A stretch of 37,646 bases of DNA from a virus (lineage: Duplodnaviria; Caudoviricetes): the IMG/VR virus record IMGVR_UViG_3300046807_000001, positions 1-37,646 of that record; one strand, given 5' to 3'. The stretch's first letter is position 1; each line of letters starts with the position of its first letter. The notes below the pieces were generated by a model. It saw only the letters and a program-made list of their open reading frames with translations. It made no database searches and was not told the DNA's origin. Shown piece after piece: positions 1 to 36,851 of this stretch. The position numbers were made by a program, and so were the translations under genes.

Positions 1-211
1 GACTTCACAATGAGCGCCACCGGTAAATACATCAACCCTTCACTGCAACAGCGGTGGGCCTACTTTGCAATGGGCTGGGAAATGAAGGAGGCAACGACAT
101 GAAATCCACCATAGAAATGGCCCGTGATGCATGGGCAAAAGCAGGTGAAGGTTGGGTTGACCAGCATTGGTATGCAGACCGCGAAAAGGCATTCAAGGAG
201 TTTGAAGCCCT
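1..211. repeat. Terminal direct repeat / circular assembly overlap, copy 1
   Basis: 1-211 matches 37436-37646 except T128 vs G37563. Confidence 0.95.
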
Positions 212-707
212 TGTTCGTGCTGATGAGCGCAACAAAGTCTGGTCGCAAAAGCACTGGACTGAGTACGAACAAGCCATCGTTGCCGCAGAGCGTGAGCGAT
301 GCAATTCAGAATGTTTTAAAGCACCTGTGCAGGAGCCTGTGGCGTGGATGTGCCATCCATTCGGAGACAGTGAGGTCGAATACGGACCGCATCAGCAATG
401 CGAAAACTGCATGCCCCTCTACACCACCCCACCCGCAGCACAGCGGCAATGGGTTGGGCTGGACTGGCTACCAAAACATAAATGCGGCTTGCACCTAAGC
501 CACAACGAACACCGTGATGTCTACGAAACTGTTGAGCAGTTTTATGACGCTGACGATTTCATCTCGGAAGAAGAATGGTACAAGGCTGTTGCAGAAGATA
601 GCGTGTGGGTGCTGCATTGGTATCCAAACACGCCCGTTGGTTTCACTCGCATTGCCGCATCAACACTGGAAGCCATCGAAGCCAAACTCAAGGAGAAGAA
701 CACATAG
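99..707 (+). CDS. Mosaic phage hypothetical protein with QEPVAW/PLYTTPP linker motifs (Ea22/EaA-like modular type)
   Basis: ATG at 99 overlaps the upstream stop (ATGA), SD AAGGAGG; short motifs LVRADER, AAERE, QEPVAW, PLYTTPP, AIEAKLKEKNT that recur in phage early proteins. Confidence 0.75.
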   Translation: MKSTIEMARDAWAKAGEGWVDQHWYADREKAFKEFEALVRADERNKVWSQKHWTEYEQAIVAAERERCNSECFKAPVQEPVAWMCHPFGDSEVEYGPHQQCENCMPLYTTPPAAQRQWVGLDWLPKHKCGLHLSHNEHRDVYETVEQFYDADDFISEEEWYKAVAEDSVWVLHWYPNTPVGFTRIAASTLEAIEAKLKEKNT

Positions 708-729
708 AAAAAGGGGCCAGAGGCCCTTT
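708..729. terminator. Intrinsic terminator between convergent genes (best on minus strand)
   Basis: AAGGGGCC-AGA-GGCCCTTT; on the minus strand the stem is followed by 5 U, just after the primase stop at 732. Confidence 0.65.
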
Positions 730-731
730 GA

Positions 732-3209
732 TCAATCCAGCAACTCGGCCCCGTACACACGGGGCTTTTCTTTTCTGGACAGCCTGTAAATATCATCCAG
801 TTGACGCTGTTTGGCATCGATCACGGCCTTACGGTGGTCCTTGAACTGCACAGCCAGCGCGGGGTTGATGGCCCACTGGGCATGGTGTTGGTTCTCTTTT
901 GACCCATCGTCCATGCGCATGACCCATCTGCCCTGCTCCAAAGGATACATAGCCCCGTAGATCATCTGATCCTGCTGCCATACGTTGACCTTTTCAATCT
1001 GACGGCGTGCTGACCGTTTGATCTCGGCCAGCGTGATTGTGGGCTCATCGGCGTGCTGGATGATGTAGTCCCGCAGCCAGGTGTCGAAGTTGGACGCACC
1101 GGACAACTCGCTCAGGGCATACCGGTAAGCTGGAACCACGTAGGACTGGACCAAGTGGATTACGCGCTTGGCCAGGTCTGCGGACACTGTCATGCTGAAG
1201 GGCGATTCGATCAGGTGGAACATGAGCATGATGCGCCCGGCCAAGCCCTCGATCTTGCCGAAGGCAGTCATGAACGTGTCGTCAGACTGGAGCAGGCGTT
1301 CATCGTGGCGCTTGGCGTCGTACCAGTCTTGGAACTCCTGATACACGGCCTTGGCCTCGGGGGACAGCTGGTAAGTCATGGGAGGCAGGGCGAACACGAT
1401 GCGCAAGGTCTGCTCCCATTGCTGCTTGTTAAGCAGGTAATCGGGGATCTCCACGGGCTTGCGGGTCAGGTCACCGTTCAAGATGCATGGCACGAACCGC
1501 TGCACCAGACCATCGGCGCTCAGGTTGTGCAGGTTCTCACGGAACACACGGGGCTGGATGTTGCCGTAGATGCTGACAGCCAGGTTCTCGGCAAAGATCG
1601 AGCCACTGCCCACACGGTCCATCTCATAGCTACTCGACTCATATGCCTTGACCCATGCCGAGCGATCCTCGCCGCTGGCCTTGTCTGTCAGCTTGCGCAC
1701 CCAGCTGTTCATTTCGTCAAGGGCGCACAGCAGGCCCCGTGGGCGGTCAGCTGCCAGGCGCACCAGCTTCTGGCTGGTCACGTCATCGACGGTGATGCGC
1801 AGGGGTACGGGTTGCGGTGGCAGGTCATGCACTTGGGGTGCTTGATCAGCGCCAAGCATGGCGTCAGGGCTGGCCGAGAACTCAAGGAACGCCTTTTTGC
1901 TGCTGGCGAACATGGCCTCTTGACCTTCCCAGTCGAGCAGCTCCTTTTTAAACCGTGGACGGTCTTCCATCTCGAGGTTCTTGAGTGGGGCCAGCATGGG
2001 CGCAGAGCCTGGCGTTTTCTTGTCCGCGGGCGCTCCGATGGTCATGAGCCAAAGCACCGGTGGCACCTTGAAGTCCTTGATCAGCTCGAGGCGGGTGCGG
2101 GCATCCACGACACCACAAACAGCCGCCAAGCCTGCGAACAAAGGCACCAAAGGGTCACAGCCCACTGTCTGGCCGATCTCCTCGGCCCGGCGGGCAATGA
2201 CAGCAGGCCACAGGGACACATCCATCATCGGTGGCCGTGGCCGCAGGTCAACGATGACCGACTTTGGGTCGGCGGGTGCCTCTACAGCCGCGAACATGGA
2301 CGAGATGTCGGGCAAAGGCTTGACCCAGCCGTGCTGCTTGGCGATGTGGAACAGACTGCCCAGTTTGACCGCTGTGGCCTTGTCATTTCTGAAGCTGACC
2401 CACTGGTTGACAATTTCCTTTTCACCAGGGTATTTGTCAACCGACTGCTGACTCCAGTCGTGCCAGAGCGTCAGGCCCTGATCCAACTGATCCGTTTGGT
2501 CACCGGCCCACTTGAGCGCCATGCCCACGGTGACCCACTCCTCACGGGAGCAGTTGGCGGGGATCGCCTCGAGGGCTGATCGGATGTCGGACCATGATGC
2601 ATCGATGGCCTCACCTGTGCCAATGGTGCGCTCTTTGTCCTGCGCCAGCATGCCCTGCCACAGATCAAGCAGGGGCTGGGGGATCATGGGCAGACGGGTC
2701 CAGTGGCCTTTGCCAGCCCATCGGTAGGGCTGGAGCGTGTCGGGGTGAATCGATGGGGGCATGACATCCTGCACCGTCAGGCCGTTGGCCGTGGCGCAGC
2801 GCAACTCATAGGCTGTGACGCTGTTGATCAGGATCTTCTTGGACGGCAGGGCCAGACCGAAGGGCATCTGGTACAGCAATTTGCCGTGACCAGCCCTGCC
2901 CGAGTCCACGATGACAGCATTGTTTGCATCATACAACGCTTGCAGATCGATCCCGTGTTGCTTGAGCGCAACAGTGGTGTTGTCCCACTCGTCAATGTCT
3001 AGCGCCATGGTGCCACTGTAGGCATGGGCCAAGCCGATGCCGTAGCCTGCGGGCAGATCACCTTGGGACTTCAGTGCGTTGGCCTTGACGTTCCATCCTG
3101 CTGTGCGTGGCCCCTTGGTGCCTGCTGGGATGGGCACAAGTGACCAGCCGTGACGGATGTACGCATCAATGGATGCGGGGTGTGCTTGAACGGTTGGTAT
3201 TGCTGTCAT
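732..3209 (-). CDS. Bifunctional primase-polymerase (Prim-Pol + PriCT-2) fused to DUF3987-type helicase-like domain
   Basis: 825 aa; N-terminal GWSLVPI..GTKGP..GW, ALDID, GHG, MPPSIHP; PriCT-2 REEWVTVGMAL..WHDWS..KY; degenerate P-loop GAPADKKT and LCALDE. Confidence 0.88.
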   Translation of the reverse strand: MTAIPTVQAHPASIDAYIRHGWSLVPIPAGTKGPRTAGWNVKANALKSQGDLPAGYGIGLAHAYSGTMALDIDEWDNTTVALKQHGIDLQALYDANNAVIVDSGRAGHGKLLYQMPFGLALPSKKILINSVTAYELRCATANGLTVQDVMPPSIHPDTLQPYRWAGKGHWTRLPMIPQPLLDLWQGMLAQDKERTIGTGEAIDASWSDIRSALEAIPANCSREEWVTVGMALKWAGDQTDQLDQGLTLWHDWSQQSVDKYPGEKEIVNQWVSFRNDKATAVKLGSLFHIAKQHGWVKPLPDISSMFAAVEAPADPKSVIVDLRPRPPMMDVSLWPAVIARRAEEIGQTVGCDPLVPLFAGLAAVCGVVDARTRLELIKDFKVPPVLWLMTIGAPADKKTPGSAPMLAPLKNLEMEDRPRFKKELLDWEGQEAMFASSKKAFLEFSASPDAMLGADQAPQVHDLPPQPVPLRITVDDVTSQKLVRLAADRPRGLLCALDEMNSWVRKLTDKASGEDRSAWVKAYESSSYEMDRVGSGSIFAENLAVSIYGNIQPRVFRENLHNLSADGLVQRFVPCILNGDLTRKPVEIPDYLLNKQQWEQTLRIVFALPPMTYQLSPEAKAVYQEFQDWYDAKRHDERLLQSDDTFMTAFGKIEGLAGRIMLMFHLIESPFSMTVSADLAKRVIHLVQSYVVPAYRYALSELSGASNFDTWLRDYIIQHADEPTITLAEIKRSARRQIEKVNVWQQDQMIYGAMYPLEQGRWVMRMDDGSKENQHHAQWAINPALAVQFKDHRKAVIDAKQRQLDDIYRLSRKEKPRVYGAELLD

Positions 3210-3214
3210 ACAAT
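3186..3214 (+). promoter_or_regulatory. Sigma70-like promoter antisense to the primase leader
   Basis: TTGAAC (3186-3191) - 17 nt - TACAAT (3209-3214). Confidence 0.65.
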
Positions 3215-3250
3215 GGACTCGCTGGTGATCGCAGTTGCCAGTTTCTTCAT
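3206..3250 (-). CDS. 14-aa leader peptide MKKLATAITSESIV translationally coupled to the primase
   Basis: SD AAAGGA upstream of ATG 3250; its TGA overlaps the primase ATG (ATGA); the primase has no good SD of its own. Confidence 0.6.
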   Translation of the reverse strand: MKKLATAITSESIV

Positions 3251-3300
3251 GGTGTTTGTCCTTTAAAAGCCCTGACTCACAAGGTCAGGGCTTTTTCTTT
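3221..3300 (+). ncRNA. Predicted ~80-nt cis-antisense RNA with two stem-loops
   Basis: Promoter upstream; 5' hairpin 3221-3242 using G-U pairs; unpaired linker complementary to the leader SD and AUG; terminator hairpin plus U-tract. Confidence 0.55.
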
Positions 3301-3301
3301 T
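3265..3301 (+). terminator. Intrinsic terminator
   Basis: AAAAGCCCTGAC-TCACAAG-GTCAGGGCTTTT followed by TCTTTT. Confidence 0.8.
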
Positions 3302-3320
3302 GCAAAAATATTTTGTTGAT

Positions 3321-3361
3321 GTTGCACATCGTATCACAAGTTGTGATACACTTTGTGCAAC
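3321..3361. promoter_or_regulatory. Palindromic operator with overlapping divergent extended -10 promoters
   Basis: GTTGCACA..GTATCACAA-G-TTGTGATAC....TGTGCAAC; TGaTACACT on + (3344-3352) and TGaTACGAT on - (3328-3336). Confidence 0.7.
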
Positions 3362-3378
3362 CGATCAGGAAATAAATC

Positions 3379-3576
3379 ATGGCAACCAAATCCAAATCAA
3401 AGTTTCTGACCATTCGGGTGACACCCGATGATCACAAGAAATTTCACACAAAGGTCAAGAAGTTCGGGCAACCGTCTGAGGTCTTGCGTGAAATCATTCA
3501 GGCGTTCATTGACGACCGCCTGACTATTCAACCTCCCGTTACCGTAAAGGAATCTCTCTATGTCACTCGAAGCTGA
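3379..3576 (+). CDS. Ribbon-helix-helix (CopG/Arc-like) transcriptional regulator
   Basis: 65 aa; FLTIRV beta-strand then helices, G.PSEVLREII; SD AGGA. Confidence 0.7.
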   Translation: MATKSKSKFLTIRVTPDDHKKFHTKVKKFGQPSEVLREIIQAFIDDRLTIQPPVTVKESLYVTRS

Positions 3577-3994
3577 AATCAAAGCACTGGCTCAAGCCGT
3601 GATCAACCTGACTGCCAAAATCGAAGGCATCAATGTAACAGCCCCTGCCACTGTTGCGCCAACACCCGCACCCGTGGTACAAGCTGCCCCCGTGGTTGTG
3701 TCTGTCATTGACACCCCTGTTGCCGCACCTGCCCCAGTAATGACGGCTCCCGCGATGCCAGCGCCTCCTGCATTCGTGACCCCTGCTCCTGTTGCTGCCC
3801 CTGTGGTCACTGGCGCACCGTTCACTGACGGCAAGGGTCTGATCGATTACGTCATGGGTGCATACAAGGCTTTGGGTGCTACCAAGGGCGCACAGATCCA
3901 GAACGTGCTGGTGAATCTGGGTTACCAGAACATCAACGATGTCAAGCCTGAGCACTACGGTCAATTGTTCGCTGGTGTGGAAGCACTCAAGTGA
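3560..3994 (+). CDS. Hypothetical protein with Ala/Pro-rich linker, typical upstream of DUF2800
   Basis: 144 aa; SD AAGGA; N-terminal helix, AP-rich linker, small C-terminal domain. Confidence 0.8.
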   Translation: MSLEAEIKALAQAVINLTAKIEGINVTAPATVAPTPAPVVQAAPVVVSVIDTPVAAPAPVMTAPAMPAPPAFVTPAPVAAPVVTGAPFTDGKGLIDYVMGAYKALGATKGAQIQNVLVNLGYQNINDVKPEHYGQLFAGVEALK

Positions 3995-5298
3995 GCACAC
4001 ACGCCCAACTGTCTCCATCAAAGCGTAGCCGCTGGGCCTTGTGCCCTGGCTCGATTCGAGAGGAAGCCAAGTACCCCGATACCGGTAGCGGCCCCGCTGC
4101 CGTTGACGGGACGCACAGCCACACGCTGCTGGAGCGATGCATTGGTTCATCCGAGCCAGCCGCAGCCTACATTGGCGCATCGCTGACTGACCACGAAGGT
4201 GACTTCATCGTGGACAAGGCCCGTGCAGATCGTGTGCAGGTCGCTCTTGACTACATCGCCAAACGAGTGGTCGAGGAGTCCACACCGTTCTTGGTGCCCA
4301 AGGTCATCAGCGAAACCCGTGTGGACCCTGCACACCTGCTCGGTCGTGACGACTTGTCGGGCACCGTGGACATCCAGATCCACGGGTACGACATGCTTGA
4401 GCTAATCGACTACAAGGATGGTATGGGTGTCGTTAGCGCAGAAGGCAACATGCAGCTTGAGCAGTACGCCTACGGTGTACTGGCTGGCTTCAAGTTGCCC
4501 GTTAACGGCACCTATCCCTTCAAGACGGTGCGCATGACCATCATTCAGCCCAAGTTGGCGCTGCGCGGGATGCCTGCAATCACGTCGCACGATGTGGCTG
4601 TAAGCGAACTGTTGGCCAACATGGGTACAATCGTGGCTCAAGCTGCTGCAACTGACAAACCAGATGCACCGCTTGTGCCGGGTGAAAGTCAATGTAAATT
4701 CTGCCGTGCCAAGGGTTCCTGCTCTGCACTGGCAAACAACGTAATGAAAGAGGTCGGGATCATGTTCCAACCAGTCGTAACGCAAACACTCGATGTCGCA
4801 CAGCAAAGTGCCGACAAAGATCCATCCACGATGGACGATGCCCAGATCGCTCAGATCATGGAAGCTGCTCCCCTGATGCGTCAACTTCTCGAAGGTGTCG
4901 AGGCTGAAGCGCTGCGCCGCATGCAAGCTGGTCAAACCATCCCCGGCCTCAAGCTGGTCAATGGTCGTGGCTCCCGTGCATGGGCATTGCCTGAAGCCGA
5001 GATGGCCGAGAAGCTGGTGAAGATGGGCATTCCCAAGGGCGCTGTCTACGAAACCAAACTCGTGTCCCCTGCCAAGGCTGAGAAGCTGACGTGGGAAAAG
5101 CGTGATGGCACCAAAGTCCAACTGACCGAGCGCCAACTCAAACGCATGGATCAAGAGTACGTGGCCAAGATGGCTGGCAAGCTCACCGTGGCCCCCGAAT
5201 CTGACAGCCGCCCCGCTGTCATCATGAATGCTGCGCCGCTGTTCAGCGCAGTAGAGGCAGCACCCGCTGCCGAATCCCTGCCCTCGTGGCTTTCTTAA
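3991..5298 (+). CDS. Cas4-like PD-(D/E)XK nuclease, DUF2800 family
   Basis: HAQLSPS..RW..CPGS, GT..H, GTVD, IDYKDG, QLEQYA, C-terminal CKFCRAKGSC, GLKLVNGR. Confidence 0.9.
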   Translation: MSTHAQLSPSKRSRWALCPGSIREEAKYPDTGSGPAAVDGTHSHTLLERCIGSSEPAAAYIGASLTDHEGDFIVDKARADRVQVALDYIAKRVVEESTPFLVPKVISETRVDPAHLLGRDDLSGTVDIQIHGYDMLELIDYKDGMGVVSAEGNMQLEQYAYGVLAGFKLPVNGTYPFKTVRMTIIQPKLALRGMPAITSHDVAVSELLANMGTIVAQAAATDKPDAPLVPGESQCKFCRAKGSCSALANNVMKEVGIMFQPVVTQTLDVAQQSADKDPSTMDDAQIAQIMEAAPLMRQLLEGVEAEALRRMQAGQTIPGLKLVNGRGSRAWALPEAEMAEKLVKMGIPKGAVYETKLVSPAKAEKLTWEKRDGTKVQLTERQLKRMDQEYVAKMAGKLTVAPESDSRPAVIMNAAPLFSAVEAAPAAESLPSWLS

Positions 5299-5313
5299 AC
5301 TGGAGTAAATGTA

Positions 5314-5985
5314 ATGTCCGAAATCATCTTCCTGTCCGATGTCCGTTTGTCTTTCCCCCACCTCGCTGAACCCCAGCGCCAGGTTAACGAGGCCACCGGC
5401 AAAGAGCGCATCAGCTACAACTGCGAGTTCATCATGCCGCAGGATCATCCTGGCTTTCAGCAGTTCATGGCCCGTTACGGTGCCTTGGCACTGGAGAAGT
5501 GGAAAGAGCACGCCCAGACTGTCATGGGCATGATCCAACAGGATCGCAAGACCCGCTGCTTCGGTATGGGTAACGAGAAGATCAACAAAAAGACCTTCCA
5601 ACCCTATGACGGCTACGTCAACAACGTGTTCATCACTGCTGGCCGCGATAGCGCACCTCAGATGATCCAGGCTGACGGCTCCCCTGTGGACCCCAGCAAC
5701 ACGATGGCCTACCAGCAGCTGGCCCGCAAGATGTACGGTGGTTGCCGTGTCAACGCAGCGATTAAGCCTTGGCCACAGGACAACAAGCATGGCCGTGGCA
5801 TCCGCTGCGACTTGATTGCTGTTCAGTTCTTCAAGGACGACACACCATTTGGTGAAGGTGCCGTGGACGCATCGAACCTGTTTGGCGCTGTGGCCGGTGC
5901 TGCTCCTGCTGGCTTTGGTGCTGTGGCTCCTGCGATGCCCGCTGCACCGTTTGCTGGCCTGCCATCCTTCCTGGGTGGTCAGTAA
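5314..5985 (+). CDS. Single-stranded DNA-binding protein, DUF2815 family
   Basis: VRLSFPHL, YGGCRVNA, GIRCDLIAVQFFKD..PFG; lies between DUF2800 and the polymerase. Confidence 0.88.
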   Translation: MSEIIFLSDVRLSFPHLAEPQRQVNEATGKERISYNCEFIMPQDHPGFQQFMARYGALALEKWKEHAQTVMGMIQQDRKTRCFGMGNEKINKKTFQPYDGYVNNVFITAGRDSAPQMIQADGSPVDPSNTMAYQQLARKMYGGCRVNAAIKPWPQDNKHGRGIRCDLIAVQFFKDDTPFGEGAVDASNLFGAVAGAAPAGFGAVAPAMPAAPFAGLPSFLGGQ

Positions 5986-5992
5986 TTAAATC

Positions 5993-6070
5993 GGGGCTGA
6001 AAGCGGATGCTGTGACCGAAAGCCGGTTCAACCAAGTTGTTCCAAGCCACAGACGCAGCGAGTAGGCCCC
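5993..6070 (+). ncRNA. Candidate structured RNA with loop-E/S-turn internal loop
   Basis: GGGGCU/GGCCCC closing stem, GAAA/GAGUA internal loop, further pairings, inner hairpins ACCG/CGGU and CAAC/GUUG; no U-tract. Confidence 0.55.
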
Positions 6071-6091
6071 ACTTTGTAAGGAGTAATAGTA

Positions 6092-6586
6092 ATGGTTACG
6101 CAAGAAAGATTGAAGCAGTTGCTTCATTATGATCCTGTGACCGGAGTGTTCACACGGATTCAATCCAGTCGATCAGATCGCTTAGGCCAACAACCTGGAT
6201 CGCGCAACACCAAAGGTCACATTCAAATACGAATTGACGGTAAGTTGTATGTCGCCCATCGACTTGCGTGGTTGTATGTCAATGGTCAGTTTCCAATCAA
6301 TCAGCTTGACCATATTGATGGTGACAAAACCAACAACAAATTTGGCAATCTTCGCACCGCTACAAATAAACAGAACCAAGAAAATGTGCCGCTTCAAACG
6401 AACAACACTTCTGGTTATAGAGGTGTTTCTTTTGACAAACGGGTAAACAAGTTTCGGGCTTACGTTTGTCACAACAGAAAGAACATTACGATTGGTTTGT
6501 TCGCAACTGGTGAAGATGCTGCAATTGCAGCACGTTCGGTTCGTGATCAATTGTTCACCCACCACCACACGGAATACGCAGCATGA
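6092..6586 (+). CDS. Free-standing HNH homing endonuclease with AP2-like DNA-binding domain
   Basis: YDP.TG.F, AHRLAW.Y, DHIDGDKTNN..NLR, NTSGYRGV, IGLF; more AT-rich than neighbours. Confidence 0.92.
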   Translation: MVTQERLKQLLHYDPVTGVFTRIQSSRSDRLGQQPGSRNTKGHIQIRIDGKLYVAHRLAWLYVNGQFPINQLDHIDGDKTNNKFGNLRTATNKQNQENVPLQTNNTSGYRGVSFDKRVNKFRAYVCHNRKNITIGLFATGEDAAIAARSVRDQLFTHHHTEYAA

Positions 6587-8436
6587 AAAACGACTGGGTG
6601 TATGACACTGAGGAATTTCCAAATGTGTTCACGATTGCGTTTGAACACGCTGAAGCCCCAATCCGACTGATGTTTGAAATCAGCGATTGGCGTAACGACT
6701 CCAAAGAAATCATTGCGTTCCTTCAGTACCTCAAGGACACGAATGCAAGAATGGTGGGATTCAATAACGTAGGATGGGATTACCCTATTTTGCATACGCT
6801 GATCCGCATGGGTCACAGTGATGCCTTCACGCTGTACCAGAAGGCCATGGCCATCATCAACTCGCAAGATGACAGCGACCGATGGATGCACATGGTCAAC
6901 CCGAGTGACCGATTCGTTGAGCAGGTAGACCTGTTCAAGATTCACCACTTCGACAACAAGGCCCGCGCCACCAGCCTCAAGGTGCTCGAGTTCAACATGC
7001 GCTCTGACAACATCGAGGATCTGCCGTTCAAGGTGGGCACCGAGTTGACCGAGGAGCAGGCCGTCAAGCTCAAGCAGTACAACGCGCACGATGTGGCGCA
7101 GACCAAATTGTTTCTTGGGCACACGCTCGACATGATCAAGTTCCGCGAGGAGCTGTGCCGCCTGTATTCAGGCAAGGACTGGATCAACTACAACGACACC
7201 AAGATCGGCAAAGAGTTCTTTGCTATGAAGCTCGAAGAAGCCGGTGTCACGCTGTACGACTTCGGCCCCAATGGGCGCACACCTCGGCAGACCCCGCGCC
7301 CCCAGTTGGCGCTCAAGGATGCCGTCCTGCCTTGGATCACATTCGAGCAGCCCGAGTTCACACGGGTGCTGGGCTGGCTCAAGGACCAAGTGATCACTGA
7401 AACCAAAGGGGTCTTTGATGACGTTGTTGCTCGGGTTGATGGTTTTGAATTTGTGTTTGGCCTTGGTGGCATTCACGGCTCTGTTGAGTCGGAGGTTATT
7501 GAGTCCGATGCTGACCATGTCATTGTTGATCTGGATGTCAGTTCTTACTACCCTAACCTTGCGATCAGCAACCGGTTCTATCCTGCCCATTTAGGTGAGT
7601 CGTTCTGCGACATCTACAAAAATTTGTACGAACAGCGCAAAACCTACGCCAAAAACAGCGCAGAGAACGCCATGCTGAAGCTGGCGCTCAACGGTGTGTA
7701 CGGTGACAGCAACAACCCGTTCAGCGTGTTCTACGACCCGCTGTTCACCATGAGCATCACGCTCAACGGGCAACTGCTGCTGTGCGTGCTGGCCGAAGGG
7801 ATGATGCACATCGACGGGTTGAAGATCATCCAGGTGAACACGGACGGCATGACCGTGCGGGTGCCCCGCGCCAACAAGTGGCTGGTGGACACGGCCCGTG
7901 CTGCATGGGAGTCGCGCACCGGCCTGCAACTGGAGGAGGCGATCTACTCGCACATGTTCATCCGTGATGTGAACAACTACATTGCGCGGTACGAGGATGG
8001 CAAGGTTAAGCGCAAAGGTGCCTACGAATACAAGATGGGCTGGCATCAGAATGCCGGTGGTCTGGTGGTGCCCAAGGTGGCCGAGAAGGTGCTGATTGAT
8101 GGCGCACCGATCCGCGAGACTGTGGAGCAGTGGTCGCACATCATGGACTTCATGCTGCGCACCAAGGTGCCACGGTCGAGCTATCTGGCCATCGAGCACG
8201 ATGGTGTGGCATCACAGCTTCAAAACGTCACGCGCTATTACATCGCCAAGGGTGGTGGGCACTTGTTCAAGTGGATGCCGCCCCTCAAAGCCAAGCCTAA
8301 TGTATGGCGCAAGATTGGCGTGGAGTCTGGCTGGGGTGTTCAGCCCTGCAACGACATTCGAGATGCTGGCAAGTTGCCGGTGGACTTTGACTATTACGTG
8401 AGAGAAGTGGAGAAGCTATGTCTGGGATTGGCGTGA
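6583..8436 (+). CDS. Family B DNA polymerase with 3'-5' exonuclease
   Basis: Exo motifs YDTE, GFNNVGWD, YNAHD; polymerase motifs DLDVSSYYP, KLALNGVYG, NTDG; KRKG. Confidence 0.92.
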   Translation: MKNDWVYDTEEFPNVFTIAFEHAEAPIRLMFEISDWRNDSKEIIAFLQYLKDTNARMVGFNNVGWDYPILHTLIRMGHSDAFTLYQKAMAIINSQDDSDRWMHMVNPSDRFVEQVDLFKIHHFDNKARATSLKVLEFNMRSDNIEDLPFKVGTELTEEQAVKLKQYNAHDVAQTKLFLGHTLDMIKFREELCRLYSGKDWINYNDTKIGKEFFAMKLEEAGVTLYDFGPNGRTPRQTPRPQLALKDAVLPWITFEQPEFTRVLGWLKDQVITETKGVFDDVVARVDGFEFVFGLGGIHGSVESEVIESDADHVIVDLDVSSYYPNLAISNRFYPAHLGESFCDIYKNLYEQRKTYAKNSAENAMLKLALNGVYGDSNNPFSVFYDPLFTMSITLNGQLLLCVLAEGMMHIDGLKIIQVNTDGMTVRVPRANKWLVDTARAAWESRTGLQLEEAIYSHMFIRDVNNYIARYEDGKVKRKGAYEYKMGWHQNAGGLVVPKVAEKVLIDGAPIRETVEQWSHIMDFMLRTKVPRSSYLAIEHDGVASQLQNVTRYYIAKGGGHLFKWMPPLKAKPNVWRKIGVESGWGVQPCNDIRDAGKLPVDFDYYVREVEKLCLGLA

Positions 8437-8657: not shown

Positions 8658-8922
8658 AAAAAAGGTCTGCGACTACGCCAAGACCAAGGGTGTGCTGGCG
8701 TACAAGTTCACAAGCCCTGCCCGTGCCGCTGTGCCTGATCGTCTGTTCATTGGACCCGATGGGCGTATGTGGTTCTGCGAGTTCAAGCGCGAGGGTCAGG
8801 TGCCCACGCCAGCGCAGTACAGAGAGCACGACAAGCTGCGTCAGCAAATGGTCAATGTGTTTGTGATTGACAACGTGATCGAGGGTAAATTGATGATTGA
8901 TGTAATGGTGATGGGATGCTAA
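8638..8922 (+). CDS. VRR-NUC domain nuclease
   Basis: EKDIE, KFTSP...VPDR, FCEFK, TPAQ; ATG 8638 with SD GGAG. Confidence 0.9.
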   Translation: MLEKDIEKKVCDYAKTKGVLAYKFTSPARAAVPDRLFIGPDGRMWFCEFKREGQVPTPAQYREHDKLRQQMVNVFVIDNVIEGKLMIDVMVMGC

Positions 8923-9509
8923 AAGTTCTTGTTGCATGCGAATACAGCGGCAAGGTGCGCGATGCGTTTACCCGTATGGGTCACTTTGCAATGTCGTGCG
9001 ACCTATTGCCGACTGATGCACCAGGTCTGCATTATCAAGGTGATGTGACCGACATTCTTAACCAAGGGTGGGACATTATGATTGCTCACCCACCTTGCAC
9101 ATATTTGTCCGTGTCTGGGATGCACTGGACCACTCGTGGTTTGCGCGATCCTCAATTAACAGAAGACGCACTCGATTTTGTTCGATTGCTGATGGACGCA
9201 CCAGTGCCACGGATTGCAATCGAGAACCCGATCAGCGTGATCTCCAGCCGCATTCGTAAACCTGACCAAATCATTCAGCCGTGGTGGTTCGGTCATGACG
9301 CCAGCAAAAAGACATGTCTGTGGCTCAAGAATCTGCCATTGCTGACACCAACAAACAAAATGCAAGGTGATGACAAAACGCGCCGTGGTAATCAAACAGC
9401 GAGTGGTCAAAACAAACTGCCACCGTCAAAAGACCGATGGAAGATTCGCAGTGAGACATACCAAGGAATTGCCGATGCAATGGCCGCACAGTGGGGTGGA
9501 TCATGCTAA
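8916..9509 (+). CDS. Short phage DNA cytosine methyltransferase-like protein
   Basis: VLVACEYSG, SCDLLP, catalytic-type HPPC, IENP, KKTCLWL. Confidence 0.8.
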   Translation: MLKVLVACEYSGKVRDAFTRMGHFAMSCDLLPTDAPGLHYQGDVTDILNQGWDIMIAHPPCTYLSVSGMHWTTRGLRDPQLTEDALDFVRLLMDAPVPRIAIENPISVISSRIRKPDQIIQPWWFGHDASKKTCLWLKNLPLLTPTNKMQGDDKTRRGNQTASGQNKLPPSKDRWKIRSETYQGIADAMAAQWGGSC

Positions 9510-11129: not shown

Positions 11130-11353
11130 AGATCGTTGTGTACACCAAGAGCAACTGCCCCAACTGCACGAGCGCCAAGCAACTGCTCAAGTCCAAAAAC
11201 CTTGAGTACAAAGAAATTTGCTTGGACAACGAGGCCGAGCGTGCTGCGTTCACGGTCATGTTTCCAGACCTGCGTCAGATGCCTCAAATTTTCATCAACA
11301 GCCAGCGTGTCGGTGGATTCGCTGGACTTCAAGCAGCATTGGAAAAATCATGA
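11126..11353 (+). CDS. Glutaredoxin
   Basis: YTKSNCPNC, AKQLL, MPQIFI, VGGF. Confidence 0.92.
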   Translation: MKIVVYTKSNCPNCTSAKQLLKSKNLEYKEICLDNEAERAAFTVMFPDLRQMPQIFINSQRVGGFAGLQAALEKS

Positions 11354-20984: not shown

Positions 20985-21697
20985 CAGTAGTTACCGGCGT
21001 AGATGTTGAAGCGCTGGCGGTTGGCAACCAGTGCGTATGGCATGGCCATCACATCGTCAGGGTTGTTGATGCGCTTGAGGTCACGCTTGCTGGTCATGGC
21101 GATGCGCATGACCTGTGGGCTTGGCTCAACGCCAAACTCGGGGGCGATCTCCATCGCCAAGTTGTACGTGAACGCACGCAGGTAGCCTGGTGGGAAGTAC
21201 AAGTTGGTGGCAAGATCAGCCGGTTGATTCAATTCTTCAATCGACACGAAATGCCACTCCAGATCCTGTGTGGGACGTGGATAAATGAACATCTCGGCGT
21301 CGGGGTACGTCATGTTGACGAAGATCACCTGCGGGTAGGTAGACGTCACGGTCTTGACCGCGATGCCGTCGTACTGCTGCTGGTTGATGAACTTGATGCC
21401 ATACGACACGCCGTTGGGCGCTTTGAAGTACGTGGCGTCGTCAAACAGAACGGGGCGATTGCCCACGAAGTCGCCCGAGGGGCCAAGGGTGCGACTGATG
21501 AAGCCAGATGGCCAAGTAAACACCTGGTCTTGAGTGGAGAACACCGACAAACGCTCAGTGTTCCACGACTCGATCATCTGGTTCAACGCCATCAAGGCGT
21601 CTTGAGACATTGAGGCAGACGGCGTTTCACCTTCGGCAAGAATGCCAAGCAAGCGGAATGCCCTGTTGATCTGGTCGCCCGCGCTGTAAGTAGTCAT
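20984..21697 (-). CDS. Head-to-tail adaptor, P22 gp4-like
   Basis: I.RA.RLLG....GE.P, L.ALN.M..SW, YNLA.EIAPEFG. Confidence 0.8.
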   Translation of the reverse strand: MTTYSAGDQINRAFRLLGILAEGETPSASMSQDALMALNQMIESWNTERLSVFSTQDQVFTWPSGFISRTLGPSGDFVGNRPVLFDDATYFKAPNGVSYGIKFINQQQYDGIAVKTVTSTYPQVIFVNMTYPDAEMFIYPRPTQDLEWHFVSIEELNQPADLATNLYFPPGYLRAFTYNLAMEIAPEFGVEPSPQVMRIAMTSKRDLKRINNPDDVMAMPYALVANRQRFNIYAGNY

Positions 21698-22236
21698 ACC
21701 TGAGCCTTTTTTGGTGTTTTAGCCGCTGCGCGTTTGTTCCCAATTAAGGAAGCTGAAATTTTGGCGCGAGTTTCAGCAGAATAAACTTTACCTGTGTTCA
21801 TCACAGACAATCGTTTTTTCTGTTCTTCCGATGTTGTACAAATGCCCTTTTTGGCTTTTGAAATTTTTTGCCGATGAGCTTCAGTAAACACTTTTTTCTT
21901 TGCGGCGGCGCTCATTTTAGCCCGTGTTTCCGCTGAATGTTTGGTTCCGAGAGGTGAATTGGCAATCGGACGTCCGTTGTACACGGGCTTAAAAAAATCC
22001 ATCCAAAACTGCTCGCGAGAGATCAATTCAGTCTTGTCATCAATAAACTGAACAATCTCCCAATCAAACGCGCTTGGACCATATTTGTCATACGCCCGTT
22101 GAAGTCGAGTGTTGTAATGACATTGTTTAGCCAAATCCCGGCGATGAGCCGACCATCTGCGATTGACAGCCACGGCAGAGCCAACATACATGTCATGAGT
22201 GACATTGTTGACAATGGCGTAGATGGCAGATGTCAT
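21694..22236 (-). CDS. GIY-YIG homing endonuclease with NUMOD3 repeats
   Basis: AIYAI...MYVGS, RRW..H, REQ, YN; KHSAETRAKMS, FTEAHRQKIS, YSAETRAKIS. Confidence 0.92.
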   Translation of the reverse strand: MTSAIYAIVNNVTHDMYVGSAVAVNRRWSAHRRDLAKQCHYNTRLQRAYDKYGPSAFDWEIVQFIDDKTELISREQFWMDFFKPVYNGRPIANSPLGTKHSAETRAKMSAAAKKKVFTEAHRQKISKAKKGICTTSEEQKKRLSVMNTGKVYSAETRAKISASLIGNKRAAAKTPKKAQV

Positions 22237-24608: not shown

Positions 24609-25124
24609 TCAAACAGATTGGTGAGGACAAACGCCACCGTTTTTATGCTTTCCCGTGTTGCAGTTCATACAGAGAACTTGGTAGCCTGGAGGAAATCCCG
24701 ACTTCCTAAGCCACTGATAAAAACCAATACCAGAACCTGCGTACAGACCTGATCTTCGTTCCTCAGCGCCATTGTTGTCAATATGATCTATCGAGAGAAA
24801 CATCGGTTCATTTTCACCGCAGCAGTTGCATTTGTATCCGCCATAGGCTTCAAACACTTGCGCCTTGCAAACCGCCTGTGCGCGTTTGGTTTTTTCTGAC
24901 TCAGCCTTGCGTATTGCAGCGACTTCTTCAGGTGTTCCATTCGCTAACTTGCGGTTGCGGTGTTCACGTTTATGCTCTCGGTCTTTTTCCCGATTTGCTT
25001 CACGCCAGTCCCGCATGCGTTGGTTAAACCGTTCCCGGTTTCGTTCTCTATATCTGGCAGATGCTTCCCTGTTGCGTTGCCGCTTCAGTTCCTCAGGTGT
25101 CAGATTTAAATTGTCACTCTCCAT
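24609..25124 (-). CDS. Zinc-binding HNH-type homing endonuclease between scaffold and coat
   Basis: Basic N-terminal helix; CNCCG, LSIDHI.N, QVLCMNCN.GK. Confidence 0.82.
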   Translation of the reverse strand: MESDNLNLTPEELKRQRNREASARYRERNRERFNQRMRDWREANREKDREHKREHRNRKLANGTPEEVAAIRKAESEKTKRAQAVCKAQVFEAYGGYKCNCCGENEPMFLSIDHIDNNGAEERRSGLYAGSGIGFYQWLRKSGFPPGYQVLCMNCNTGKHKNGGVCPHQSV

Positions 25125-36503: not shown

Positions 36504-36534
36504 GCCCCTAGGTTAGATCCTAGGGGCATTTTTT
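36504..36534 (+). terminator. Intrinsic terminator of the early operon
   Basis: GCCCCTAGG-TTAGAT-CCTAGGGGC-ATTTTTT. Confidence 0.8.
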
Positions 36535-36557
36535 GACCCTCACCCTGACTGACCCCT

Positions 36558-36851
36558 ATGAATGACAAAAAACCCCCGCAAAACCCCGATTTCATGGCCG
36601 CATTGGCCGCTCTGACAACCCGCCACCAGTTGACCGAGACCCAGACCGCCGGTCTATTGGGCGTGCCCGTGTTCACTTTGCGCAAATGGCGCACGGGTAC
36701 TCGCGCCCCCAGCGCCGCCGCTGTTCGACTGGTCGAGGTGCTCGACTTGTTGGGCGCACTGGCCCCTGCCCTCTTGGGTGGCCTGATCCCCGAGCCAGTC
36801 CCACCGAAACCCCCTAAGCGAAAAGCAAAAACGGAAAAAAGCCCTTTATAA
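36558..36851 (+). CDS. XRE/Cro-like helix-turn-helix protein
   Basis: LTETQTAGLLGVP..TLRKWRTG.RAPS. Confidence 0.8.
   Translation: MNDKKPPQNPDFMAALAALTTRHQLTETQTAGLLGVPVFTLRKWRTGTRAPSAAAVRLVEVLDLLGALAPALLGGLIPEPVPPKPPKRKAKTEKSPL

Follow-up and report, generated by a model that had tools for sequence, protein, structure and literature searches.

A unit predicted to encode an antisense RNA at the primase-helicase start in a large family of freshwater phages

How does a tailed phage set the amount of its own primase-helicase, and does the short segment at the start of that gene hold a plasmid-style antisense RNA? The question arises from the IMG/VR virus record IMGVR_UViG_3300046807_000001, whose whole stretch of 37,646 nucleotides (nt) we analysed and refer to as the window. 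A first-pass annotation of this DNA had placed a leader peptide and an opposing antisense RNA at the primase start, after the pattern of plasmid R1. Antisense control of replication genes is a hallmark of plasmids because it measures copy number, and one would not expect a strictly lytic phage to require it. Comparison with related loci indicates that the antisense cassette is real and uncatalogued, and that it is a variant on a known control principle. From their sequences, the phages that carry it make up a large freshwater family, and the unit is predicted to yield an antisense RNA of about 80 bases. This RNA probably acts in cis and lowers primase-helicase synthesis, chiefly because it would cover the ribosome-binding site of a leader to which the primase is likely coupled in translation.

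Anatomy and conservation of the cassette

The regulated gene and the predicted parts of the cassette, including the leader open reading frame (ORF) and its Shine-Dalgarno (SD) sequence, are located in the window as follows.

732..3209, minus strand: primase-helicase, the regulated gene (825 aa; Prim-Pol, PriCT_2 and DUF3987; Pfam PF09250, PF08707 and PF13148 above cut-off)
3186..3191, plus strand: -35 box TTGAAC of the predicted antisense promoter, inside primase codons 7-8 (codon conservation)
3209..3214, plus strand: -10 box TACAAT of the predicted antisense promoter, at the junction of leader stop and primase start (TANNNT in 152/152 cassettes)
3206..3250, minus strand: leader ORF of 14 codons (ATG at 3250; TGA at 3208-3206 overlapping the primase ATG at 3209, as ATGA)
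3259..3264, minus strand: leader SD sequence AAAGGA, 8 nt upstream of the leader ATG
3221..3301, plus strand: predicted antisense RNA of ~80 nt (from the fold; 67-96 nt in 96 distinct cassettes)
3221..3242, plus strand: 5' hairpin of 9 bp with a GCAGUUG core, beginning 7 nt past the -10 box
3243..3264, plus strand: single-stranded linker complementary to the leader SD and AUG, open in the fold
3265..3301, plus strand: intrinsic terminator facing the antisense direction (stem 3265-3295, U-tract to 3301)

We compared this locus with three sets of relatives. The first consists of 78 IMG/VR loci, 76 of which have the primase start; 70 are distinct, or 71 counting the window. The cassette is present in 62/71 and entirely absent from 9/71, and these nine fall into two groups lying apart on the tree. 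The divergent gene lies behind a spacer of about 170 nt with the cassette versus 86-89 nt without it (8 of the 9 cassette-less loci measured). Adding loci from a scan for the hairpin motif, which favours one hairpin type, gave a second set of 96 distinct cassettes. For the wider set, 318 loci were reduced to those in which the primase start was complete, leaving 178 distinct upstream regions whose primases are 53-97% identical. In these regions an automatic finder located 142 antisense terminators and 10 bulged stems were added by eye, for 152 cassettes; four regions, in which the cassette or terminator lies farther upstream behind inserted DNA, were set aside, and 22 are cassette-less.

The -10 box is found in all 152 cassettes, both promoter boxes in 149, a leader in the ATGA frame in 140, a hairpin at +1/+2 in 127 and the GCAGUUG core in 117, while the 22 cassette-less regions have both boxes in 0/22 and a leader in 1/22. 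The first-pass annotation had staked its reading on conservation of the promoter, upstream ORF and hairpins in relatives; promoter, leader frame and terminator are indeed kept together and lost together, which makes the parts of the cassette one unit. Promoter and terminator are its most constant core. On the tree, the presence label switches about seven times, five of these switches being forced by strong branches (the direction of change is not rooted).

The unit appears tied to this gene family. We found one copy per genome, at the primase site only, with no second copy in the window, in the related phage DSL-LC05 or in 10 further genomes. A pattern combining promoter and core, scanned over 39 of 64 parts, returned 120 loci (93 distinct), and only one had the terminator, in front of the same primase family. 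Searches for primases below 50% identity gave mostly the same family again, and the cassette is absent from distant (30%) Novosphingobium homologs. A 71-aa gene seemed correlated with the cassette in one comparison and not in a second, and this gene-content link was dropped.

The two boxes of the predicted antisense promoter are separated by 17 nt and lie exactly where they had been annotated, although the description of the -10 box as sitting on the primase start codon holds for its first base only, the rest lying over the last leader codons. Taken by itself the promoter match in the window is at chance level (5 promoter-like sites in positions 1-8000 versus 3.6 expected), so the case depends on conservation in relatives. 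In the first set, 62/62 cassettes combine a TANNNT -10 box, invariant at positions -5, -3 and -1, with TTG 17 nt away, and the -35 box occurs in 0/9 cassette-less loci. Read on the opposite strand, the -35 box falls in primase codons 7-8, of which the eighth is CAA at 62/62 cassette loci (149/152 in the wider set) and ACG, ACA or ATG at 9/9 cassette-less loci. Such synonymous constraint is rare elsewhere in the gene: CAA makes up 5-78% of the codons in 16 other conserved Gln columns, and a single codon is used in only 2/109 invariant two-fold columns. At one locus (L368, found by a pattern that requires CAA there) a two-codon insertion moves the VQQHP motif, and CAA remains codon 8. The predicted antisense promoter visibly constrains the codons of the gene that it would control.

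We confirmed the coordinates of the leader, which had been described as an unannotated 14-aa ORF with its own SD and a stop overlapping an SD-poor primase start. Computed anti-SD pairing in the window is stronger for the leader (-5.3 kcal/mol) than for the primase start (-3.1), with means of -7.9 and -3.7 over the 96 cassettes. In 95/96 cassettes a start preceded by an SD reads without interruption to the ATGA stop, compared with 7 and 6 in two control frames. Leaders come in nine lengths, of 12-15 codons (77) or 30-34 codons (19), and at L037 and L077 the peptide is frameshifted with its stop retained. A conserved function of the leader peptide was ruled out, since lengths and frames vary. 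A frameshifted, longer primase start was ruled out as well, because the leader frame ends in ATGA in 95/96 and database proteins begin at the same residue.

The RNA was also found as annotated, with 5' hairpin, open linker, and terminator with U-tract all in place; the terminator stem measures 13 bp (12 Watson-Crick pairs and one U-G). Segment 3221-3303 folds with z = -3.41, and 0/200 shuffles were equally stable. The 5' hairpin has a folding energy of -9.0 kcal/mol on the plus strand versus -3.0 on the minus strand. Among 14 distinct 9-bp stems we counted 73 Watson-Crick pairs, 45 G-U pairs, 0 A-C pairs and 8 mismatches, with double changes at pairs 2-4; the 45 G-U versus 0 A-C pairs bear out the claim that the G-U pairs form only on the plus strand. 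At L544, stem pair 8 has changed from A-U to G-C, and unrelated 5' hairpins stand at +1 in L183, L482, L484, L528 and L555. The linker is more open than the RNA as a whole (unpaired probability 0.71 vs 0.47 in 123 short-leader cassettes). Past the terminator stem, U count is higher on the antisense side than on the sense side in 96/96 cassettes (7.6 vs 2.1 of 9), and the automatic finder detected a sense-direction terminator in 0/142 of the wider set. Types of terminator loop and 5' hairpin occur in all four combinations, with 9 and 7 changes on the 62-row tree, which points to shuffling of parts. In kissing-loop antisense systems one partner loop features a U-turn (YUNR) motif; no such asymmetry was seen here, the motif being on the sense loop in 24/38 and on the antisense loop in 24/38. 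The motif GCAACTGC has 11 sites in the window versus 3.55 expected, one of them at 3231-3238 and two lying 28 nt apart at 11151 and 11179.

Proposed mechanism and competing explanations

These features suggest the following route. Sequence and conservation show an antisense promoter of the sigma-70 type within the leader stop and primase codons 1-8, followed by the 5' hairpin, the open linker and the antisense-facing terminator. The strong SD sits on the leader, which ends in ATGA, and the length and peptide of the leader are free to vary. With the promoter placed where a primase SD would be, ribosome entry would have shifted to the site opposite the linker. Host RNA polymerase would make the RNA, whose linker would pair with the leader SD and AUG and then zip up into a full duplex that stops 12 nt short of the primase AUG. 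Leader initiation would thereby halt, and fewer ribosomes would be passed to the primase; the duplex may additionally hinder direct primase initiation and invite cleavage by RNase III. Phage DNA replication would then be capped or delayed in proportion to genome copy number, probably alongside transcriptional control by a ribbon-helix-helix (RHH)-like protein.

Several observations weigh against this reading, above all against its coupling step. The SDs of cassette-less primases are no stronger (mean -2.6 vs -3.6 kcal/mol with the cassette), and the unpaired probability of the primase start is 0.55 both with and without it. With SD equally poor and start equally accessible, leader coupling need not be obligatory. 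The RNA 3' end falls 8-14 nt short of the best leader start in 19/96 cassettes, so that direct masking of the SD does not apply there. No ATGA-frame leader is detectable in 12/152 cassettes; distant members (L530, L538, L546, L547, L559 and L564) have a two-codon leader or none, and at L500 the leader is fused in frame as an N-terminal primase extension, ~45 nt upstream of the start. That fusion stems from a one-base difference, either a real variant or an assembly error. Four cassettes have an in-frame SD-ATG 12 codons upstream. Strict dependence of primase translation on the leader, as first proposed, is therefore not supported, given the equally poor cassette-less SDs and the 12 cassettes with no detectable leader; coupling is likely the main but not the sole route. 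Other points concern the cassette as a whole. TTG is missing from the -35 box in 3/152 cassettes, and the cassette is dispensable (about seven losses or gains). A foreign gene separates cassette and primase in three loci, starting at the ATGA site, and a -35 box is supplied in 1/3; the insertions at L542 and L553, a 144-aa gene and an HNH gene 420-570 nt upstream of the primase, lack one. The counts are not independent, as near-copies occur among the loci, and metatranscriptome contigs make up small shares (0.04-0.15) and are unstranded and thus uninformative on the RNA, which remains a prediction.

Some of these points fit an antisense RNA that works without the leader, which would do no more than boost basal translation. 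Repression would then come from the duplex, either by keeping 30S subunits off their footprint immediately upstream of the primase AUG or by drawing RNase III cleavage; lambda OOP acts on cII by a comparable duplex route of the RNase III type. Promoter and terminator are the most constant parts and are kept in the six distant members named above, cassette-less primases work with poor SDs, and the starts of long leaders fall outside the RNA. We nevertheless consider this quite unlikely, because the leader frame is retained in 95/96 and 140/152 cassettes and the most open part of the RNA faces the leader SD and AUG in the 123 short-leader cassettes. It is very unlikely that convergent transcription itself damps the primase promoter, some 110 nt away, by promoter interference or polymerase collision, the RNA being a by-product trimmed by the terminator. 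The promoter is the best-conserved part, and the 5' hairpin is absent in 25/152 of the wider set; against this, conservation of the hairpin is compensatory and strand-specific, the cassette parts persist 300-640 nt from the divergent gene start, and the terminator ends the transcript short of the primase promoter.

A fixed sequence is not something that a cis-antisense RNA requires, yet the core is present in 117/152; this would also suit an RNA acting mainly in trans, whose anti-SD-like linker would target host mRNAs or whose GCAGUUG would target other phage genes. The excess of GCAACTGC sites in the window (11 vs 3.55 expected) and a weak Rfam likeness to suhB/MmgR (21.4 bits vs a cut-off of 41) point the same way. 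However, sites of this type also occur in two cassette-less genomes (8 and 6; others 4-15), the linker sequence changes along with its cis target, and the hairpin motif is at the primase in 68/72 distinct matches, so that we regard a trans role as highly improbable. The least probable account makes the site a replication origin or primer RNA, in the manner of ColE1 RNA II, or a sense-strand attenuator. It draws on the position at the head of the primase gene, on a U4 that follows the hairpin on the sense strand in the window, and on pSYSA, for which the accessible text describes a primer system of antisense RNA and small ORF upstream of a primase-helicase Rep (PMC9978351). Complete genomes in which the cassette is cleanly missing (spacer ~82 nt shorter) argue against an origin or primer, and no skew switch stands out at 2-kb resolution. 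The attenuator was ruled out by the antisense-sided U-tract in 96/96 and the sense terminator in 0/142.

Relation to known antisense systems

Judged by analogy, the cassette works like R1 CopA/tap and P22 sar and belongs to neither family. As far as the source text available goes, the precedent for control of a replication gene by antisense RNA and leader is R1 (IncFII) CopA/tap/repA with CopB, which shares a cis-antisense RNA, coupling of the replication gene to a short leader and, close by, a small transcriptional repressor (PMC5717011). An antisense gene with its own promoter and terminator opposite the leader is present here as predicted anatomy, and the leader ORF overlapping the rep start is matched in 95/96 and 140/152 cassettes. 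In contrast, there is no CopA homology: Rfam gave no match at the gathering score for the window and eight related loci, and CopA is not among the 20 matches up to E = 10. Here the RNA directly covers the leader SD and AUG in most members, and the -35 box lies within codons 7-8 of the regulated gene. The R1 rep start is sequestered in a stem, whereas we detected none covering the primase start, whose unpaired probability is 0.55 whether or not the cassette is there. The target also differs: not IncFII RepA but a PrimPol-PriCT2-DUF3987 primase-helicase, in a tailed phage that encodes a DNA polymerase of its own. The first-pass term 'replication initiator', in the sense of a protein binding the origin, is thus not supported.

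A second likeness is to the REx-C modules of Pseudomonas RepA-PFP/RepJ replicons and to ColE2: in the available portion of their description, these are portable modules with a putative antisense RNA, a terminator stem and an optional leader, the ColE2-class Rep is a primase, and parts have been swapped between lineages (PMC5304414). The cassette is smaller (~80 nt) and sits in a phage with no shown plasmid phase; a blastn search for plasmid control modules against 72,556 PLSDB records gave no DNA match.

Among phages, P22 sar in immI is an antisense RNA of ~70 nt that blocks translation initiation, with a small repressor gene adjacent (PMC12197685, PMC12111858; available sections of both). The claim that such control is undescribed in a P22-like phage therefore needs trimming, as P22 itself has a cis-antisense translation blocker; it stands in so far as the sar target is an antirepressor and not a replication gene (PMC12197685, same sections). 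The cassette scores 20.4 bits against RF00262, with a cut-off of 43. Its target is the primase leader instead of the antirepressor ant, and no antirepressor is found among the 53 window ORFs scanned. No coupled leader is described for sar in those sections (PMC12197685, PMC12111858).

The c4 RNA of P1/P7 and the CI RNA of P4 are small phage RNAs that gate a coupled small ORF (icd) or an operon with a primase-helicase (P4 alpha). They are processed from the same strand and pair through short boxes, whereas the RNA predicted here is opposite-strand and fully complementary, its promoter and terminator face the opposite strand, and Rfam gave no C4 match. Literature searches, from whose reach most subscription papers lay outside, found no publication describing the cassette. 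In the accessible text and supplement tables 3-6 of Fremin et al. (PMC10690425) there is no candidate before a PriCT_2/DUF3987 gene, although an anonymous listing in its alignment archives is possible.

Genomic surroundings and phage lifestyle

The window is a tailed-phage virus record of 37.6 kb in which an ORF profile scan found P22-type portal, head closure and ejection genes together with a separate replication region; the label 'P22-like' suits the head and tail genes and not the rest of the genome. Two features beyond the cassette concern the control of the same region.

3328..3352, both strands: predicted back-to-back extended -10 promoters in a palindrome (TGn-TACGAT, minus strand, 3336-3328; TGn-TACACT, plus strand, 3344-3352; sequence reading)
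3379..3576, plus strand: 65-aa candidate ribbon-helix-helix regulator, first gene of the divergent replication operon (conserved in 10 relatives and DSL-LC05)

Within the palindrome at 3322-3360 the extended -10 boxes lie 13 nt apart, flanked by TTGCAC/GTGCAA repeats. The layout is like the back-to-back promoters in many relatives, cassette-bearing and cassette-less (by eye and regular expression), and was not picked up by the consensus promoter scan. From its sequence, the pair at 3328-3352 is likely the source of the primase mRNA and possibly an operator; these same boxes, with the palindrome around them, likely form a mutually exclusive promoter pair plus operator. The nearest named Atlas cluster to the 65-aa protein is RHH_1, at 0.92, and Pfam HicB/NikA fall below cut-off; its model has two helices (pLDDT 66) and no Foldseek match. 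The protein is probably an RHH regulator of the 3328-3352 promoters, its fold being unconfirmed, and by analogy it would complete a double control of the CopB/CopA kind. A switch like P22 immI has an RHH repressor at divergent promoters, and the signs of one here are suggestive at most. Following it, the divergent operon encodes a DUF2800 exonuclease, an Enc34-type single-stranded DNA-binding protein, a DNA polymerase and an SNF2 helicase. Apart from this RHH candidate, the sole repressor-like gene is that of a 97-aa helix-turn-helix protein (36558-36851), directly after a plus-strand terminator-like hairpin (window 36504-36851); it has homologs in 10/11 compared genomes, and the DSL-LC05 annotation in its region reads 'repressor protein C'.

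DNA has been inserted repeatedly around the cassette. In 13 loci it was added between the divergent promoters and the cassette, which remains with the primase, and inserted genes that place it 300-640 nt away from the start of the divergent gene leave its parts intact. At L247 (972-1548; same contig as L445) an HNH-AP2 endonuclease gene lies exactly at the coupling site, with an ATGA start and the primase one base past its stop, and its codons give the antisense promoter a perfect TTGACA at 16 nt. The 144-aa gene of the L542/L553 insertions we take, by eye, to be NADAR-like. Insertions seem to be especially frequent at the cassette junction. Elsewhere in the window are three free-standing homing endonuclease genes (6092-6586, 21694-22236 and 24609-25124), patchy among relatives; a DNA methyltransferase gene (8916-9509), present in 1/11 compared genomes; and a Rap1a immunity-family protein (PF18602; 37065-37385), found in none of the 11.

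The closest named record, and the only close one, is the metagenome-assembled phage DSL-LC05, with a primase identity of 72%. It has the same cassette without annotation. The available part of its description reports it as predicted to be virulent and does not contain the word antisense (PMC10611076). The first-pass annotation had noted the lack of an integrase and raised a plasmid-like or carrier state as possible. The absence stands: neither a tyrosine integrase nor a ParA-type ATPase occurs in 26 related records, of which 23 reach 90% completeness or more (serine recombinases not searched in relatives). The plasmid state gained no support, as ParA is lacking in those records and no host-linked copy was found; in 185,579 species genomes, the close matches are three short contigs (429-3,638 nt) in metagenome-assembled genomes of unrelated groups, with no prophage context. 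It is tentative, and on balance unlikely, that this abundant freshwater family persists in slow-growing hosts as a copy-controlled episome, in which RNA and RHH protein would set primase dosage like CopA/CopB and reshuffled linkers and loops would define incompatibility or superinfection-immunity groups within a set of phages classed as virulent.

The cassette adds a predicted, uncatalogued RNA family. Its presence, backed by strong comparative evidence, in 152/178 variants of an apparently virulent phage family suggests either concealed states of a carrier or plasmid-like kind or a brake that times phage replication, and the natural pairs with and without it make the question testable in a simple reporter.

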